Below are positions 12,356-52,872 of a DNA stretch of 64,000 bases, piece by piece. Numbering within the stretch: position 1 is the first letter of the stretch; every line of letters begins with the position of its first letter. The translations under genes were made by a program, and so were the position numbers. The notes beneath the pieces are model-generated. The model saw only the letters and a program-made list of their open reading frames with translations, made no database searches and was not told the DNA's origin. Source of the stretch: a virus; IMG/VR virus record IMGVR_UViG_3300028840_006907, positions 1 to 64,000 of that record. The stretch is one strand, 5' to 3'.

Positions 12356-13540
12356 TTATCCTCTTACATAATCAGTTACACAGTTAATTTCATCATCACT
12401 TATCCAGGCACCGTGATATCGTTCAGGTTCAGAAGCACCAGGATAAATCATTAACATATCTCCCTTACCGGCCAGAGCTTCAGCTCCATTGCAATCAAGA
12501 ATAACTCTGGAATCATTTTTGGATGATACTTGGAATGAGATCCTTGAAGGCATATTGGATTTAATAAGACCAGTGATAACTTTAACGATAGGCTTTTGAG
12601 TTGCAAGTACCAGATGGATACCTACTGCTCTGGCTAATTGAGCCAACCGTACGATCATTTTCTCAAGTTCTTTACCTGAAGTCATCATAAGATCAGCCAT
12701 CTCATCAACCACAGTTACTATATAAGGAAGTTTTGTATCGGAATTTTTATTAAAACTTTCGATATTTCTTACTCGATAATCAGCTAAGAGTTTATATCTA
12801 CGATCCATTTCTTCAATTAAATCTGAGAACACATGCACCGCTTCTGAGGGCTCGGTAACCACAGGGCATCTCAGGTGGGATAAATTATTATATGACGCCA
12901 TTTCCACTCTCTTGGGATCGACAAGGACAAGCTGGCATTCATCTGGTGTTCGAGTAAATAATATTGAAAGAAGAATACTATTTATACATACAGATTTACC
13001 TGATCCAGTTTGACCTGCGATTAAAAGATGAGGCATAGTAGTCAAATCGATTATTTTTGGATTACCAATAGTATCGGTTCCAAGTACGATGGGAATCTTG
13101 GTATTGGAATCAGTGGTAAAGATATCACGGAAACCGATAATGGATCTTGTTTCATTCATCATTTCTATTCCAACACAAGCTGTACCTGGAATGGGTGCTT
13201 GGATTCTGATATTGGATGACATTAAAGCCATTGCGATATCTTCAGTGATCTTTTTAATCTGAGCAATCCTTACACCTTTTGATAATTTCAGTTCATATCG
13301 GGTAACCACTGGGCCATGTTTAATATCCTGGACAGCAGTATCGAATCCAAGTTCAGCGATCCTGTTTTCAAGATCATGAGAGCTTAAACTGTTGGGTATT
13401 CTATTGGATGAATACTCGTTTAAGAGTCCTAAATGAGGTTTTCTATATCTTTTGTTTTTCTTCTTTTTACATGCATCTTCCTCGGAATTAAGGAGTTGCA
13501 TTACATTTAAGAGCTTTCTGAATTTTGTTGATTTGTTCAT
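12356..13540 (-). CDS. FtsK/SpoIIIE-family DNA translocase motor (alpha/beta domains only)
   Basis: GPVVTRYEL, APIPGT..VGIE, Walker A GQTGSGKS, Walker B VVDEMADLMM; no N-terminal TM or gamma domain. Confidence 0.8.
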   Translation of the reverse strand: MNKSTKFRKLLNVMQLLNSEEDACKKKKNKRYRKPHLGLLNEYSSNRIPNSLSSHDLENRIAELGFDTAVQDIKHGPVVTRYELKLSKGVRIAQIKKITEDIAMALMSSNIRIQAPIPGTACVGIEMMNETRSIIGFRDIFTTDSNTKIPIVLGTDTIGNPKIIDLTTMPHLLIAGQTGSGKSVCINSILLSILFTRTPDECQLVLVDPKRVEMASYNNLSHLRCPVVTEPSEAVHVFSDLIEEMDRRYKLLADYRVRNIESFNKNSDTKLPYIVTVVDEMADLMMTSGKELEKMIVRLAQLARAVGIHLVLATQKPIVKVITGLIKSNMPSRISFQVSSKNDSRVILDCNGAEALAGKGDMLMIYPGASEPERYHGAWISDDEINCVTDYVRG

Positions 13541-15168: not shown

Positions 15169-15269
15169 ATGAAATCTCCTTGGAATGATTTGTGTGTAAA
15201 ATAAAAAAGGGACACTCTGAGAAAGCGCCCCTTTTTAACTTGAAGGAATTTGTGAATATATCAGATCAT

Positions 15270-20529: not shown

Positions 20530-20772
20530 TTACTCCCTTTTAAAAATATCAGCGACAAGCGTTCCACCGTGTTTAAGTATTTGAATTGCACTAACAATAA
20601 TAATTGTTAAGATGAGAGGTGCTCCGACCATTACAATCAGTGGACCTAGAATCTTAAAAGTTTTTAACATATACTCCGCATCTTCTGCGGGAGTCGTTGA
20701 CCAGGTTCTTGAAGCATATATCTGTGCTACAAAAGCGAGACATAAGATAAGTAAAAAGACTTTTTGTTTCAT
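20530..20772 (-). CDS. small secreted/membrane protein
   Basis: Signal-like N-terminus MKQKVFLLILCLAFVAQIYA plus second hydrophobic helix. Confidence 0.45.
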   Translation of the reverse strand: MKQKVFLLILCLAFVAQIYASRTWSTTPAEDAEYMLKTFKILGPLIVMVGAPLILTIIIVSAIQILKHGGTLVADIFKRE

Positions 20773-20851
20773 GATTTTTTCTCCTATCTACTTGGAAATA
20801 TTGTACTTGACTTTAATTATACCATAAATTTATATTATTTTTCTCAATTTA

Positions 20852-20897
20852 AATGGGGTGGCTCCCATCATCTCATTTCTCCCCGGCTTTTCCGGGG
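20852..20897. other. GC-rich structured element: ATGGGGTGG box plus CCCCGG-N5-CCGGGG hairpin (copy 1)
   Basis: atggggtgg...ccccggcttttccgggg in intergenic gap; second copy at 45640-45669. Confidence 0.4.
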
Positions 20898-20973
20898 TTG
20901 TCCCACCACAATTATATATTTATTTCTTCAATTTTCCTTGGCAACACCGGGGTTCCCATCATAATCATACACA

Positions 20974-21882
20974 TCAATACTTCGACTGATTACATCCATG
21001 ATTAAATTTGTATTCATTTAATTCATCATTGGACATATGTCCATGTTTCTTGATCGTTTCTTCTAAAATCTGAGGTAATAACTTTTCACCCCAAACTCCC
21101 ATGTTCGGGACAATCTCTCCTCTTGAATTTTTGGATTTGGTAGGGTCTCCTTCAAGAGCATTGGCTCTGATTTTATTTCGTTCCAGTAGCTCCCATTCCT
21201 CATAGTCCTCACGATAAAATCTGTACAACCATAAAAGTTCGATCTCACTCATGAAAGGACATAATAAACAGTTCGATGGATAAGGCACATGCAAGCCCGT
21301 AGAGGCCATGTAATCCTGGCAATCCTTTCTATCCATTCCCATCTCTATGAGTGGATAGATAACCTCTATGGCTTTCTCCTGCCATTTTGGGCGCTCACCC
21401 TTGTTAACACGTTTTTCTTCTCCTTTGGCAATACCGATAAGCATATTGATTTTATCATATGTTTCAGCAAATTGTTTCAATCCTTTCTTTCTTCCTGATT
21501 TAAATCCATATTCTTTTTGAATCCAGTATTCGAGATATTTATATATAGGTCTCAATTTAAGTCTTTCGGTACAAGTTTTGGGAAAACATTTGCTTCCAAT
21601 TCTATTTTTTGTTTTATAGAAAAATCTTAATGTTTGCCAGTCGGGAGAGTGGAATCCCATGTCGTTTGTAAGATGAACAAATTCTACTACATTTTGAGAA
21701 CAGAATTCCTTTATAAATTGTATATGTTTATAGGTATGGGGATGCTCATCACCAGTATCGGCCATGATCACCAAAAGCCGTCCTGGTGCATATTTTTTTC
21801 TGAAATTGTTATCGAGGGCGTACTTGTAAAGTAAAGTGGTGCTGTCTTGTCCGCCCCCGTAACTTAAGACCGTAAGTTCCAT
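20974..21882 (-). CDS. PAPS-reductase/ATP-sulfurylase-like (adenine-nucleotide alpha-hydrolase) protein
   Basis: N-terminal LSYGGGQDSTTLL PP-loop variant of SGGxDS. Confidence 0.65.
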   Translation of the reverse strand: MELTVLSYGGGQDSTTLLYKYALDNNFRKKYAPGRLLVIMADTGDEHPHTYKHIQFIKEFCSQNVVEFVHLTNDMGFHSPDWQTLRFFYKTKNRIGSKCFPKTCTERLKLRPIYKYLEYWIQKEYGFKSGRKKGLKQFAETYDKINMLIGIAKGEEKRVNKGERPKWQEKAIEVIYPLIEMGMDRKDCQDYMASTGLHVPYPSNCLLCPFMSEIELLWLYRFYREDYEEWELLERNKIRANALEGDPTKSKNSRGEIVPNMGVWGEKLLPQILEETIKKHGHMSNDELNEYKFNHGCNQSKY

Positions 21883-23903: not shown

Positions 23904-23918
23904 ATTATAAGAGATCTC
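23904..23918 (-). promoter_or_regulatory. GAGATCTC palindrome fused to TATAAT box
   Basis: Minus strand reads GAGATCTCTTATAAT, then AGGAGGA and ATG. Confidence 0.4.
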
Positions 23919-24247
23919 AGATAAAGATTCAATATGAATCTTTTAGAATACATTTAATTATATGATTTTTACATACATACGAAAGGCGTAATGGCAAATG
24001 CTATAAGAAAAATAGCAAGAAGAATGAGGCAGATATCGGGTGATTTCATAACATTTTACTCCTTTAAAAGATAGAACTTTGAATTTTTTGGGGTTTCATT
24101 ATCAAAGAAAGCTATTGCTATAATATCTCCTTTGACAAAGAATTGAGTTGCATTCCTAATATTATTAATATTGAATGTCTTATCTTTCATAAATTCTTGA
24201 AATTCAATCTCGGTCACAAGGGAAAGCTCATTCATATCTAATACCTT

Positions 24248-31838: not shown

Positions 31839-31868
31839 AAAAACCTCCATTATTAATCATTATAAGAG

Positions 31869-31883
31869 ATCTCAGAAAAGGAT
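31869..31883 (-). promoter_or_regulatory. GAGATCTC palindrome fused to TATAAT box
   Basis: Minus strand reads GAGATCTCTTATAAT, then GGAGG and ATG. Confidence 0.4.
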
Positions 31884-31963
31884 TCAAGGAAATTCTTCTA
31901 AGATCTTTTAAATATAAATTATATGTATCTGGAAATATTATAGTTATAGGTAGGAAGAAATAT

Positions 31964-36141: not shown

Positions 36142-36511
36142 CCCGACTATCAAAAGTGGGGTTAAAAACGAGGGGGGTTACCCCTAAATTTGATATTTCC
36201 AGACTGGGAACTCAGACAGGGGCGATTCCAGACTGTTTCTGGCCAGACTGGGGGAAAGACCTAAGACGGTCTTAGTCCACTCATCCAAGACCATTGCCAT
36301 TTATCTGATCCGTAGCTCCAGACCTGGAATGACTTGGATAGAATTTTATATGTTACTGCCAGACAGAAAATGATCTTTGAGTCTCCACGTCCCAGGATTT
36401 CCTGGACACCGTGTAATCCACGGAACTCTAGGCTATCGGCTGATTTAATTTCGTTCTGAACTTCTATGGGAAGTTCATTCATGTTTATTTGATCTATACT
36501 TGTGATATGCA

Positions 36512-36703
36512 TTAGTCTCTCAATGCCTCACAGGTAAGGGTAGCGGGAACTACTTCAAACTGAGTTCCAGGTTCAGTACCTTGTGTGAGTTCTACTGTAC
36601 GTATGCTGGCTATATTAAAGTCAGTATAGAACTCTGTGTTATCATCCCATGCGAATTTTTTATCTTTATTTATTATGATCCATCCTTGTAATTTCATAAT
36701 CAC
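36512..36703 (-). CDS. hypothetical protein
   Basis: 63-aa ORF. Confidence 0.35.
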   Translation of the reverse strand: MIMKLQGWIIINKDKKFAWDDNTEFYTDFNIASIRTVELTQGTEPGTQFEVVPATLTCEALRD

Positions 36704-36929
36704 CTCTCATTGTACGTTTAAATAGGTTTTCAGGCCATATCCAGACTGAAGAGGTATTCAGCTACCTCTCAGTTCCAGACAGGCTTAAAACAGGTTTATT
36801 CTTCTTCATCTTCGTGGTGTATGATTTCACCAGAAGTATATCCTTCTTTAATAAGTTCTGCTATGTGTTCTCTATCAAGATCGTTGAGTTCATCAACTCC
36901 AGAGAAGGTTAAATTCCACCATCCAGTCA

Positions 36930-37190
36930 TTAGTTTAACTCCTTGATACGTTTGTTAACGGTTATTACTGCTTGTTTATATGAACAGTTTGATTTATTCA
37001 TTTCCTGAGCATACCAGATAAGTCTGATAAAAGATACACAGGCGACTGCTCTGGCATGTTCACGTTCTTTCTTGGTTAATTCACCGGGATTGAAATGAAC
37101 TCCGGCAATAGTCGGGGTTGATAAGCTTCCAGGTGCACCAAATTGCTCAATCCCATACAATTGGTTATTGATTCTTTTGATTTCTGGCAT
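36930..37190 (-). CDS. hypothetical protein
   Basis: 86-aa ORF. Confidence 0.45.
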   Translation of the reverse strand: MPEIKRINNQLYGIEQFGAPGSLSTPTIAGVHFNPGELTKKEREHARAVACVSFIRLIWYAQEMNKSNCSYKQAVITVNKRIKELN

Positions 37191-37314
37191 AATTCTCTCC
37201 TTGATTGGGGGACACTGATTTAAGTTTTACCAGACAAGTCGATTCTGACTATTTTAGACTGAAATCCAGGCTGAATTTCCAGACTGATTTGGGGAACGGG
37301 ATTTCCAGACTGAA

Positions 37315-38534: not shown

Positions 38535-38557
38535 TCCTTTTTAAGAGATGTCAGATT
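38535..38557 (-). promoter_or_regulatory. conserved 23-nt leader/translation-initiation element (copy 1)
   Basis: Minus strand AATCTGACATCTCTTAAAAAGGA, 10 nt before ATG. Confidence 0.5.
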
Positions 38558-38579
38558 ATAACTTTTAGTTTCTTTTGAT

Positions 38580-38843: not shown

Positions 38844-38866
38844 TCCTTTTTAAGAGATGTCAGATT
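38844..38866 (-). promoter_or_regulatory. conserved 23-nt leader/translation-initiation element (copy 2)
   Basis: Identical 23-mer, 7 nt before ATG. Confidence 0.5.
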
Positions 38867-38871
38867 GTCAT

Positions 38872-39243
38872 TTAATACTGGTTAGTTGTGATAGAGAAAG
38901 AATTATAACAACTACCAAAGACATTTTCGAATCCAGAATGACTAACTAGGTCACTGATTTTAACAGGGAGAGGTAACTTGTTAAATTCATTCTCTGTTAA
39001 TCCCAGGAAACTAAGTAGGTCATTTTTAGAGACCCAATCATATTCTTCCCAAAAATCTATATCAGCATTTACAGTGGCCCAATCAAATACACAATCGTTT
39101 GCTTTTTCTGCAACATTAACTTTATAGTAGAATCGATATTCATTTTCTTTCTTTATAAACTTCCATGCCAGACCGTATTCATAGAGAGATGTACCAAGAT
39201 CTGTATCTGTTCCTTCATATCCTTTGAGTTCTGATAAGTACAT
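38872..39243 (-). CDS. hypothetical protein
   Basis: 123-aa ORF preceded by conserved leader. Confidence 0.5.
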   Translation of the reverse strand: MYLSELKGYEGTDTDLGTSLYEYGLAWKFIKKENEYRFYYKVNVAEKANDCVFDWATVNADIDFWEEYDWVSKNDLLSFLGLTENEFNKLPLPVKISDLVSHSGFENVFGSCYNSFSITTNQY

Positions 39244-39246
39244 AGT

Positions 39247-39498
39247 TTAATCCTTTTTAAGAGATGTCAGATTACAACTTTTAGTTTGTTTAAATTTAAT
39301 GATGAATTGATCAGGGTTATCGAGTCTTACTAGGACAGTACTGGATTCATATTCATATATGATAGCTCCAGACTGTCGTAGGTCGTTCAGTATTTCTGTC
39401 TCTGGGATATTAGTATCTTTAAAGTGATAGATACTATCATTCATACCGGTAGCTCTGGGGAATTTATTATTAGGGTTTTTTGTATATTTTACTGACAT
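39247..39498 (-). CDS. hypothetical protein
   Basis: 83-aa ORF. Confidence 0.45.
   Translation of the reverse strand: MSVKYTKNPNNKFPRATGMNDSIYHFKDTNIPETEILNDLRQSGAIIYEYESSTVLVRLDNPDQFIIKFKQTKSCNLTSLKKD
39251..39273 (-). promoter_or_regulatory. conserved 23-nt leader/translation-initiation element (copy 3)
   Basis: Identical 23-mer, 8 nt before ATG; overlaps last codons of upstream gene. Confidence 0.5.
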
Positions 39499-41331: not shown

Positions 41332-41465
41332 TATATGTTCTCCTTGTTATAATTACCTGGAACAGGTAGAGTTAAAAATATATATTACGTATTAGAAGTG
41401 CTTGAGTCGCGCTTTAAGGCATGGAGTAAGCCCGACCTTTACGGACAGTCGGGCTTCTCTATGCA

Positions 41466-44997: not shown

Positions 44998-45567
44998 TTA
45001 GAGTTTTAATTCTTGTTGAATACCTTCAGTTTTTTCAATATGGTCTATATCGTGATCAATAATGCTTCGAGTATCGGGTAGTAACCCACTCTTTTCATGA
45101 TCATATCCAAAGAAGCCCCAGCAAGAGTGGATCTCTTCACCATCTTTATTTTTAACAATGTATCCGTAGACAGCATCTGTTAATAGACAGTCATAGGTCT
45201 CAACTTCAGACCGAAGAATATCTTTAATCTTTTCGATACGTTCTTCATTAAGTTCTGTCCAATTAAATTCAGACAGGGCTTTGCTTTTCTCTACGTAGAT
45301 CCAACCGACTTGACCACTGTCCCAAGGACAGTCAAAGCCAGTCGTATTCATGGTTAAACCACTGTGATCATATAGATACAGGGGTAGATAGATAACGTCC
45401 TCAAAGGGTATCGAATCGACGTCATATGGTGCGCCTTTATCATTGAAGTCGTAGCGTCTATGTTTAGATACCATTGATCCAAAATTATCCCATTCTGTTC
45501 TAGGGTTCAAGGGATCTTCATCAACATGAATTTCAATTGTGTAGTTTTTATATTTTATAGTTTCCAT
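44998..45567 (-). CDS. hypothetical protein
   Basis: 189-aa ORF. Confidence 0.5.
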   Translation of the reverse strand: METIKYKNYTIEIHVDEDPLNPRTEWDNFGSMVSKHRRYDFNDKGAPYDVDSIPFEDVIYLPLYLYDHSGLTMNTTGFDCPWDSGQVGWIYVEKSKALSEFNWTELNEERIEKIKDILRSEVETYDCLLTDAVYGYIVKNKDGEEIHSCWGFFGYDHEKSGLLPDTRSIIDHDIDHIEKTEGIQQELKL

Positions 45568-45639
45568 AATACCTCAATACCTCTCTTTTATTAAATATAA
45601 TTAACTGGAATGATTTGACTTAGATATATTTTATATATA

Positions 45640-45669
45640 ATGGGGTGGTCATCCCCGGATTTACCGGGG
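45640..45669. other. GC-rich structured element: ATGGGGTGG box plus CCCCGG-N5-CCGGGG hairpin (copy 2)
   Basis: atggggtggtcatccccggatttaccgggg; same bipartite element as 20852-20897. Confidence 0.4.
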
Positions 45670-45722
45670 CTGTCTCTGGGAGAATCGATACAAATGGCGG
45701 TGATTTAGACCACTCCATTTTA

Positions 45723-45980
45723 TTAGACATAGATATATTCTATAGCGGAATGTACAAGATAATAGCATCTTTGACCGTCATAAGTACTTTTATAGTACGC
45801 TACATGCCAGTCTTTTTTAATACTAGGGATGCACGTTCCTGTATATCCAAACTGTTCATTGACTTCTTGGAGGGAGACGTGTTTAAAGAAAGTATTGGCT
45901 GTTATCTTTCTTCCGTTATCAGTCATATCGTTAATAAGTTCTGCTGTGCTTGCAACACAGCATGTTAAATATTCATACAT
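45723..45980 (-). CDS. hypothetical protein
   Basis: 85-aa ORF. Confidence 0.45.
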   Translation of the reverse strand: MYEYLTCCVASTAELINDMTDNGRKITANTFFKHVSLQEVNEQFGYTGTCIPSIKKDWHVAYYKSTYDGQRCYYLVHSAIEYIYV

Positions 45981-46745: not shown

Positions 46746-46877
46746 TGGATACCTCCATATTTATTATTTATGATATGTTATTTATTATCGATACTTTTTC
46801 GGGACTCTCAACTCTTATGGTATCGATAAGTCCCCCCAGTAGAGAGTTCCTATCTCTCTACCGGCCAGAGTTATATA

Positions 46878-51572: not shown

Positions 51573-51940
51573 CATGAATAATGAAAAAAGTTTAGTAACT
51601 TTCCGAAGTTTTAAGAAACTTTTTCTTTGACGTTTGTTTTTTGTGGCTTTCATGAGTAATGAAAAAAGTTTAGTAACTTTCCGAAGTTTTAAAAATTTTT
51701 TCTTTCATGTAAACTTTTCCTTGTCTACATGAGTAATGAAAAAAGTTTAGTAACTTTCCGAAGTTTTAAAAATTTTTTCTTTCATGTAAACTTTTCCTTG
51801 TCTACATGAGTAATGAAATTAGTTTGGTAACTTTCCGAAGTTTTAAAAATTTTTTCTTTCATGTAAACTTTTCCTTGTCTACATGAGTAATGAAATTAGT
51901 TTGGTAACTTTCCGGAAAAAATTGTAAAAACGCTATTTTC
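51573..51940. repeat. 77-bp tandem direct repeats, about 4.4 copies
   Basis: Units begin at 51573 (degenerate), 51651, 51728, 51805, 51882 (partial). Confidence 0.95.
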
Positions 51941-52397: not shown

Positions 52398-52628
52398 CAG
52401 GGAACAGGGAACTGAGCACAGGGAACTGAGCACAGGGAACCGAGCACAGGGAACCGAGCACAGGGAACTGAGCACAGGGAACTGAGCACAGGGAACTGAG
52501 CACAGGGAACCGAGCACAGGGAACCGAGCACAGGGAACTGAGCACAGGGAACCGAGCACAGGGAACTGAGAACAGGGAACCGAGCACAGGGAACTGAGAA
52601 CAGGGAACTGAGAACAGGGAACCGAGCA
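52398..52628. repeat. 14-bp tandem repeat array, 16 copies, GC-rich
   Basis: CAGGGAAC(T/C)GAGCA with T/C and C/A variants; partial copy then units from 52405. Confidence 0.95.
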
Positions 52629-52872
52629 CCTGTATCTGTGATCTCGGAAAAGTTTCGGGAAAAAAATCGGGAACGGCTCAGGGCTGAGAAATAGGTATGA
52701 ATTTTTTTGGGGTATAATTTTTGGAGTTAAACAGTTGGGGAAATTGGAGTTATCTTATGTGAGGTGATGGGATAGTTTATGGAGGGTGAAAATTTTTTGG
52801 TATAGTTTGATGGAGAAACAGGTATAATACTTATAGGACGGAAAAATTTAAGTCTAATGGTTCGAGGATCTT

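Follow-up and report, generated by a model that had tools for sequence, protein, structure and literature searches.

The window analysed here, a 64,000-nt stretch of viral DNA, contains two copies of a short G+C-rich element that combines a 9-nt box with the palindrome CCCCGG-N5-CCGGGG, and this element does not look like a conserved regulatory signal. The reading that we favor, if tentatively, is that of a lineage-specific, duplicated G+C-rich palindromic insertion, of the same kind as REP sequences and mitochondrial GC clusters; as RNA, its hairpin would do no more than protect the message upstream or bring it to a partial end. The appearance of recent insertion comes from the location of the element in DNA that is missing from close relatives and from the lack of a copy elsewhere in the sequence searched; because the element was not found elsewhere and is absent at the same gene junctions of the relatives, an insertion that is recent and dispensable appears the likelier alternative to a dedicated conserved regulatory site.

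With about 33% G+C, the window is AT-rich; its genes run leftward to about 52 kb and rightward beyond, and it belongs to a genome of ~469 kb that we call giant phage-like; the PHROG and Pfam matches are phage-like (GP88, DUF932, AAA ATPase and PAPS reductase), and there is also an FtsK-family protein. As the first-pass annotation had reported, a composite element sits twice in the intergenic gaps of the leftward array (20853-20897 and 45640-45669), and both copies have the identical orientation within this minus-strand gene array. The features of the two sites are as follows.

Site 1, gap between the PAPS-reductase-like gene (20974..21882) and an 80-aa ORF (20530..20772), both minus-strand ORFs:
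20853..20861, minus strand: box, CCACCCCAT on the sense strand and ATGGGGTGG on the plus strand
20881..20897, both strands: perfect palindrome 'b', CCCCGG-N5-CCGGGG as written on the plus strand, 6 G-C pairs, RNA fold of -12.3 kcal/mol
20936..20952, both strands: degenerate palindrome 'a', CCCCGGtgttgCCAAGG on the minus strand and CCTTGGcaacaCCGGGG on the plus strand
20863-20871, 20901-20909 and 20954-20962, minus strand: three direct repeats RTGRTGGGA, each before a hairpin module or the box
20816..20847, minus strand: predicted sense promoter of the 80-aa gene, -35-like TTGAGA (20847-20842) and extended -10 TGGTATAAT (20824-20816)
Site 2, gap between an 85-aa ORF (45723..45980) and a 189-aa ORF (44998..45567), both minus-strand ORFs:
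45640..45648, minus strand: box, CCACCCCAT on the sense strand and ATGGGGTGG on the plus strand, 3' arm of a predicted 11-bp outer helix
45653..45669, both strands: perfect palindrome 'c', CCCCGG-N5-CCGGGG as written on the plus strand, RNA fold of -12.8 kcal/mol
45708..45718, both strands: box partner, GACCACTCCAT on the plus strand, with 10 of 11 positions complementary to ATGGGGTGGTC (45640-45650)
45614..45722, minus strand: extra segment of 109 nt, present in the window and absent from the closest relative of the upstream gene (L122)

The two-copy repeat is far beyond chance. The exact palindrome pattern occurs in the window only at sites 1 and 2, as does the exact 9-mer ATGGGGTGG; with up to two mismatches allowed, the hairpin pattern has four matches in the window compared with 0.14 expected, a number reached in none of 100 shuffles. 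Perfect hairpins with at least six pairs, at least five of them G-C, number five in the window compared with 0.5 in simulations, and both palindromes are among the five. Local alignment of the two gaps yields a score of 34, whereas 2000 shuffles average 14.9 and never exceed 28, and the best non-self match of each site in the window is the other site. The sense (minus-strand) core common to both reads GACA[A/G]-CCCCGG-[A/T]AAA[G/T]-CCGGGG-A, followed after 3 or 18 nt by CCACCCCATT. Between the copies, all 12 bases of the stem and the whole 10-nt box agree, whereas the loop ends, the spacer and the flanks differ; this confinement of the identity to stem and box could, alternatively, be caused by selection on a functional site. 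The description of the two sites as the same composite element thus stands for box and hairpin but not for their spacing, which is 19 nt at site 1 and 4 nt at site 2. The description as bipartite captures two parts that are indeed present at both sites but omits GACAR before and A after the hairpin (minus strand) in the shared core, as well as the degenerate hairpin at 20936-20952 and the three RTGRTGGGA copies of site 1.

The additional parts of site 1 put the box into a different light. A covariance model (R1) was built from the three modules 'a', 'b' and 'c', and palindrome 'a', which pairs fully on the plus strand only, via two G-U pairs, scores 45.9 bits with this model, being itself part of the training alignment; it represents another copy of the hairpin module, one that has decayed. 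In a unit-by-unit alignment, the box (..GGGAGCCACCCCAT) matches the 5' part of the hairpin module (..GGGACAACCCCGG). Given that each copy of RTGRTGGGA precedes a hairpin module or the box, site 1 looks like ~2.5 tandem, decaying degenerate units, namely, two hairpin modules and a truncated third. The bipartite look would then probably reflect ancestry rather than two functional parts, and a decayed tandem copy along with a truncated third unit is what is expected of drifting repeat DNA. In the minus-strand RNA, a small hairpin is predicted, GAUGGG-AGCCAC-CCCAUU, to which the box contributes the loop and 3' arm. A CRISPR repeat, expected in a regular array with spacers of ~30 nt, was considered and rejected: the site 1 modules are 52-55 nt apart, with ~16 nt between them, and the third unit abuts the second.

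At site 2, the palindrome is enclosed in a predicted 79-nt structure, with z-scores against shuffles of -3.3 for the minus strand and -3.0 for the plus strand. The most informative result comes from the comparison with relatives. In L122, the closest relative (upstream gene 83% identical), the sequence reads ...ATCTATGTCTAA|TCATTCCAGATAATT, with no insert after the stop codon, compared with ...ATCTATGTCTAA|[109 nt]|TCATTCCAGTTAATT in the window; TCATTCCAG directly follows the stop codon in L122 but lies 109 nt further on in the window. Because the stop codon of L122 joins TCATTCCAGATAATT directly, the whole structured segment 45614-45722 is, by this alignment, extra DNA right behind the stop codon in the window. 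The extra DNA relative to L122 amounts to 109 nt, not to the 79-nt inverted-repeat unit, and no clean target-site duplication was seen at site 2, only a loose TCTAA repeat near the borders. In three further relatives (L123-125), the homologs of the 85-aa and 189-aa genes are only 15 nt apart. The gene order DUF932 ... 189-aa gene ... 432-aa gene ... GP88 is common to three phage lineages (L020, L022 and L023), and the gap upstream of the 189-aa gene homolog is absent in all three.

At site 1, the element is located 7 nt upstream of the predicted promoter region, and this region is conserved in L015 (PAPS-reductase-like gene with 69% identity), where 42 nt separate the stop codon from the promoter region TTGAAT-17-TATTAT, homologous to the TTGAGA ... 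TGGTATAAT region of the window; the G+C element is absent before this homologous promoter. The lack of the element in three different relative lineages favors insertion over deletion in these comparisons, although no outgroup separates the two. More generally, the empty-site comparisons show fast turnover of intergenic DNA in this clade.

The DUF932 neighborhood holds a separate structured RNA candidate of roughly 100 nt (46775-46872, minus strand), immediately behind the stop codon of the DUF932 gene, with counterparts at L022:4098-4200, L020:1-105, L023:4288-4393 and L123:3833-3937. Helices P1-P4 of this candidate are fully complementary in all five phage lineages, with sequences that differ in each (P1, AACTCT/AGAGTT versus AATCCT/AGGATT; P3, GGGAC/GTCCC versus GGTGC/GCACC; P2 and P4 likewise differ per lineage). 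The helix order is P1a P2 P3a P4a P1b P3b P4b, such that P1, P3 and P4 cross one another, which implies either pseudoknots or alternative folds. The candidate has no match in Rfam even at E <= 1. This covarying, putatively pseudoknotted RNA after the DUF932 gene is a more promising subject than the G+C-rich element.

The search for further copies covered the window and about 9 kb on each side, that is, ~82 kb of the ~469-kb genome with more than 100 genes, the flanking sequence from the same genome being identical to the window across the overlaps; no third copy was detected in this region. The R1 scan of the window retrieved only the training copies of the model, with the next best hit at 12.4 bits. 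The sequence collections evidently do not include this genome itself, so that their scans test for relatives only. In IMG/VR, the composite pattern had seven matches, on contigs with 46-68% G+C and with unshared flanks, which points to chance; with an A/T tail required, no matches were found among the JGI metagenome contigs; and in the GTDB genomes, there was a single chance match, beside a tRNA-His gene of an Oscillospiraceae MAG (L018). The pattern GACANCCCCGGN5CCGGGGA had 13 matches in IMG/VR, on contigs with 46-69% G+C, none of them element-like beyond the pattern. A relaxed-stem pattern matched 81 loci in JGI and two in IMG/VR, none with the flanks of the element; the most AT-rich of these matches sits within a long ORF that, judging by its sequence, we take to resemble a RecG-type helicase. 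Taken together, exact and relaxed patterns matched only by chance, for the most part on G+C-rich DNA or within genes. BLAST searches of INPHARED produced only one AT-rich and one coding chance match for the 109-nt and 129-nt segments, and no DNA-level relative for the region. A locus in a 512-kb relative (L011:4837-4874) combines a hairpin with AATGGCGTGG, but the order and strand of the parts fit neither orientation and R1 misses it, so that it was dismissed as unrelated. The first-pass annotation had named absence of the element elsewhere and from relatives as what would count against its reading; no further copy was found in the ~82 kb or the collections, and none at the same junctions of the relatives compared, which weakens its proposal of a dedicated protein-binding or RNA-processing site.

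The relaxed pattern scan also brought up a repeat family in the JGI Ga01263xx contigs that is unrelated to the window, ..GGGG.ACATGTCC(C)ACCCCATTATAAAGTATAGG.AGAGT.., present on many contigs of one metagenome group (L039, L041, L053, L057, L058, L084, L087, L106, L107, L110, L111 and L113).

From these comparisons, we infer an origin of the element by insertion and duplication. A unit of roughly 50-110 nt, with the sense-strand core GACAR-CCCCGG-N5-CCGGGG-A ... CCACCCCATT, would have inserted immediately behind the stop codons of two unrelated genes of the leftward array and, at site 1, would then have been duplicated in tandem, the duplicate now decaying. The copies begin 4-10 nt after the stop codon, and their stem-loops within about 10-70 nt of it, upstream of the promoter or leader of the next gene. 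Located in the 3' untranslated region of the preceding gene, the element would be transcribed with the leftward mRNA and should fold. The transcribed element is predicted to form a very stable stem-loop (each palindrome alone folds at about -12.5 kcal/mol as RNA, with six G-C pairs and a 5-nt loop) that, at site 2, would be nested within the 11-bp outer helix. If there is any effect at the RNA level, it would most likely be that of a 3' barrier, either stabilizing the upstream message or ending it weakly and in part, rather than that of an efficient terminator.

The lack of a U-tract behind the 6-bp G+C stem, on both strands, sets the element apart from standard intrinsic terminators. The observation, made already in the first-pass annotation, that no U-run follows the hairpin on either strand holds at both sites, with no U-tract within 0-2 nt of the stem: the tails are AGAAAUG and AUGACCA on the minus strand and UUGUCCC and CUGUCUC on the plus strand, and a terminator scan of both strands reported neither palindrome. 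What the element has in common with intrinsic terminators is a G+C-rich, stable hairpin that follows a stop codon. The stretch from the site 2 structure to the 189-aa gene contains no convincing sense promoter; given the lack of a credible promoter behind site 2 and the contiguity of these genes in the relatives, the 189-aa gene probably depends on read-through, and therefore, the site 2 hairpin is probably not a strong terminator.

These observations also bear on the possibility that the element is a hairpin-only terminator or an RNA-processing or stability signal under selection, whereby the sense stem-loop is recognized by a phage-encoded RNA polymerase or ribonuclease and fixes the 3' boundary of the transcription unit upstream, ahead of the next promoter. 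The position of the copies directly behind stop codons and, at site 1, right before a promoter region conserved in L015, the very high predicted stability of the hairpins, the complete identity of stem and box in two copies whose spacers differ, and the recurrence in the clade of U-tract-less hairpins after stop codons would all be expected of such a signal. However, the element is missing at the same junctions in all relatives examined and is present in just two copies in about 82 kb with more than 100 genes; there is no good promoter downstream of site 2, where full termination would silence the conserved 189-aa gene; and the same array contains canonical U-tract terminators (15236..15204), which implies transcription of at least part of the array by a host-type polymerase. 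Thus, we consider such a signal unlikely.

G+C hairpins without a U-tract are also found right after stop codons elsewhere in this genome and in its relatives, and 3' stem-loops seem to be commonplace in the clade. Hairpins of this type follow the GP88 gene in the window (41423-41462, minus strand), in L022 (9446-9491) and in L023 (9765-9811), with a compensatory C-G to U-A change between the latter two. The 5' flank in L022 and L023, GGGUCAG-CCCCG, loosely resembles GACAR-CCCCGG, with R1 scores of 16.6 and 14.5 bits.

The element might also act as double-stranded DNA, as an operator in which the palindrome binds a dimeric phage regulator and the box serves as an auxiliary site. The dyad is perfect, with half-site centers 11 bp apart, that is, one helical turn, the palindrome and box are more strongly conserved than their surroundings, and RTGRTGGGA occurs three times at site 1. 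Nevertheless, we regard an operator as quite improbable: the placement relative to promoters is inconsistent (the center lies ~80 nt upstream of the sense start at site 1, and a clear promoter is lacking at site 2), the distance from box to palindrome is not the same at the two sites, the difference being 15 nt, the relatives show no conservation of the element, and no adjacent DNA-binding gene was identified.

A more active variant of the insertion scenario, to which we likewise assign a small probability, is that of an active non-autonomous mobile palindrome, a phage equivalent of REP sequences or mitochondrial GC clusters, that inserts after stop codons and is mobilized in trans by an enzyme encoded by this genome or by the host. 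Under this scenario, the full genome would hold many more copies; among the 20 ORFs scanned, there is no transposase, RAYT or other mobilizing gene.

Still more doubtful is a plus-strand small antisense RNA gene that starts just upstream of ATGGGGTGG and contains the hairpin. Just upstream of the boxes, sigma-70-like plus-strand sequences of the same geometry do end at 20836 (TTGACT-18-TATATT) and 45630 (TTAACT-18-TATATT), and each of the three stem transitions leaves a G-U pair on the plus strand, as opposed to A-C on the minus strand. However, promoter-like matches occur at the chance rate in such AT-rich DNA (two found versus 1.7-2.2 expected), the promoter-to-box distance is 16 nt in one case and 9 nt in the other, the plus strand lacks a terminator, the G-U asymmetry has a p of about 0.125 at best, and there is no Rfam match. 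A small plus-strand ORF, MGW..SP[AD][FL]PGLS, was rejected as common to both sites merely through the shared DNA: the 15-nt indel preserves the frame, but there is no ribosome-binding site, the lengths are 50 and 22 aa and the downstream parts are unrelated.

There is scarcely any chance that site 1 is a divergent skipping-rope RNA or that both sites are relics of tRNA(His)-like genes, both ideas being largely refuted by a sub-threshold score and the absence of tRNA matches: the skipping-rope model (RF02924) does match the minus strand of site 1, with a shared GAGAUG and a following hairpin, at 18.6 bits (E = 0.05 in a 231-nt search), but this is half the gathering score of 36.7, is not significant window-wide and has no counterpart at site 2, whereas for the relics, suggested by the 79-nt length of the site 2 structure, ARAGORN finds no tRNA in the window, no tRNA model matches either site at E <= 10, and the loops AAAAG and UAAAU lack the T-loop consensus. 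In favor of such relics, the sequence CCACCCCA, seen beside the L018 match, equals the 3' end of bacterial tRNA-His.

Several other repeats were noticed in the window. The 9-mer CAGTCTGGR occurs 11 times compared with 0.44 expected, 10 of these on the minus (sense) strand and some within ORFs (a cluster at 36198-37312, and 39367, 40224, 44895, 45989, 46468 and 51106), a strong strand bias; it is also found at L022 ~12480 and, four times, in one intergenic region of the 512-kb relative (L011:4598-4720). An FtsK/SpoIIIE-family protein is encoded in the window at 12356..13540. Two tandem arrays, 51573-51914 (77 nt x 4.4 copies) and 52404-52629 (14 nt x 16 copies), are located in the large gap that marks the switch in both gene orientation and GC skew, and two independent assemblies break within the 77-nt array at about 51.8 kb, where an ENA contig starts and a JGI contig ends; this could represent an origin of replication, an end of the genome or simply a repeat that breaks assemblies. 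Near-consensus sigma-70 promoters with a common spacer, TTGAAT-CTTTATCTGAGATCTCT-TATAAT, are found at 23904-23932 and 31859-31887 (minus strand), and the 30-mer AAGTTATAATCTGACATCTCTTAAAAAGGA (minus strand) precedes small ORFs three times (38535-38564, 38844-38873 and 39251-39280); judging by their sequences, the shared-spacer promoters and the 30-mer look like a phage early promoter family.

At present, the G+C-rich element is of little consequence, being a lineage-specific palindromic repeat that has two copies and shows no hint of a conserved role. The empty-site comparisons caution that G+C islands in AT-rich phage DNA need not all be regulatory signals. Should many copies exist genome-wide, the element would gain modest importance, since these would be selfish palindromes, like REPs or GC clusters, spreading in a giant phage genome, and could serve as markers of recent rearrangement.

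Among the known systems, the skipping-rope RNA (RF02924; PMC5737381) is a family known from phage-related DNA. Site 1 resembles it in the hairpin, the GAGAUG stretch and the second small hairpin but differs in that three of the eight closing pairs are non-canonical and there is no 3' terminator, and nothing similar is seen at site 2. With respect to MITEs, site 2 has inverted repeats matching at 10 of 11 positions (45640-45650 and 45708-45718), and site 1 has no equivalent pair. PeSL (promoter-early stem-loop) cassettes of T4-type phages are present in many copies per genome, always combine a stem-loop with an early promoter, and are thought to spread and shuffle by recombination. The element shares with them a stem-loop just upstream of a sigma-70-type promoter, the location at the borders of variable small-gene blocks and the large phage genome; unlike PeSLs, it has two copies, with a clear promoter behind site 1 only, and since L015 has this promoter but no hairpin, the promoter is ancestral.

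The closest parallels are with palindromic repeats of cellular and organellar genomes. REP sequences and BIMEs of enterobacteria and pseudomonads are short, G+C-rich imperfect palindromes that are strictly extragenic, typically right after stop codons, and often form small tandem clusters; their 3' stem-loops protect the upstream mRNA, and their presence varies between related genomes. They come in tens to hundreds of copies, with a conserved GTAG head and a link to RAYT (Y1 transposase). In the window, the corresponding features are the intergenic location at both sites, the palindrome and the tandem clustering at site 1, whereas the differences are the 2-3 copies seen in about 82 kb of the ~469-kb genome, the phage-like nature of that genome, and the lack of GTAG by the element stems and of a RAYT-like gene among the 20 ORFs scanned. 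GC clusters of yeast mitochondria, along with similar elements in AT-rich organelle and Rickettsia genomes, are intergenic G+C hairpin islands of 30-80 nt whose presence or absence is polymorphic between close relatives, and we know of no enzyme encoded by these elements. The element of the window differs from these in kingdom and sequence, and its mobility is deduced only from two empty sites, with no defined target duplication; the likeness to GC clusters lies in a G+C hairpin island embedded in AT-rich intergenic DNA that is present in one genome and absent from its relatives.
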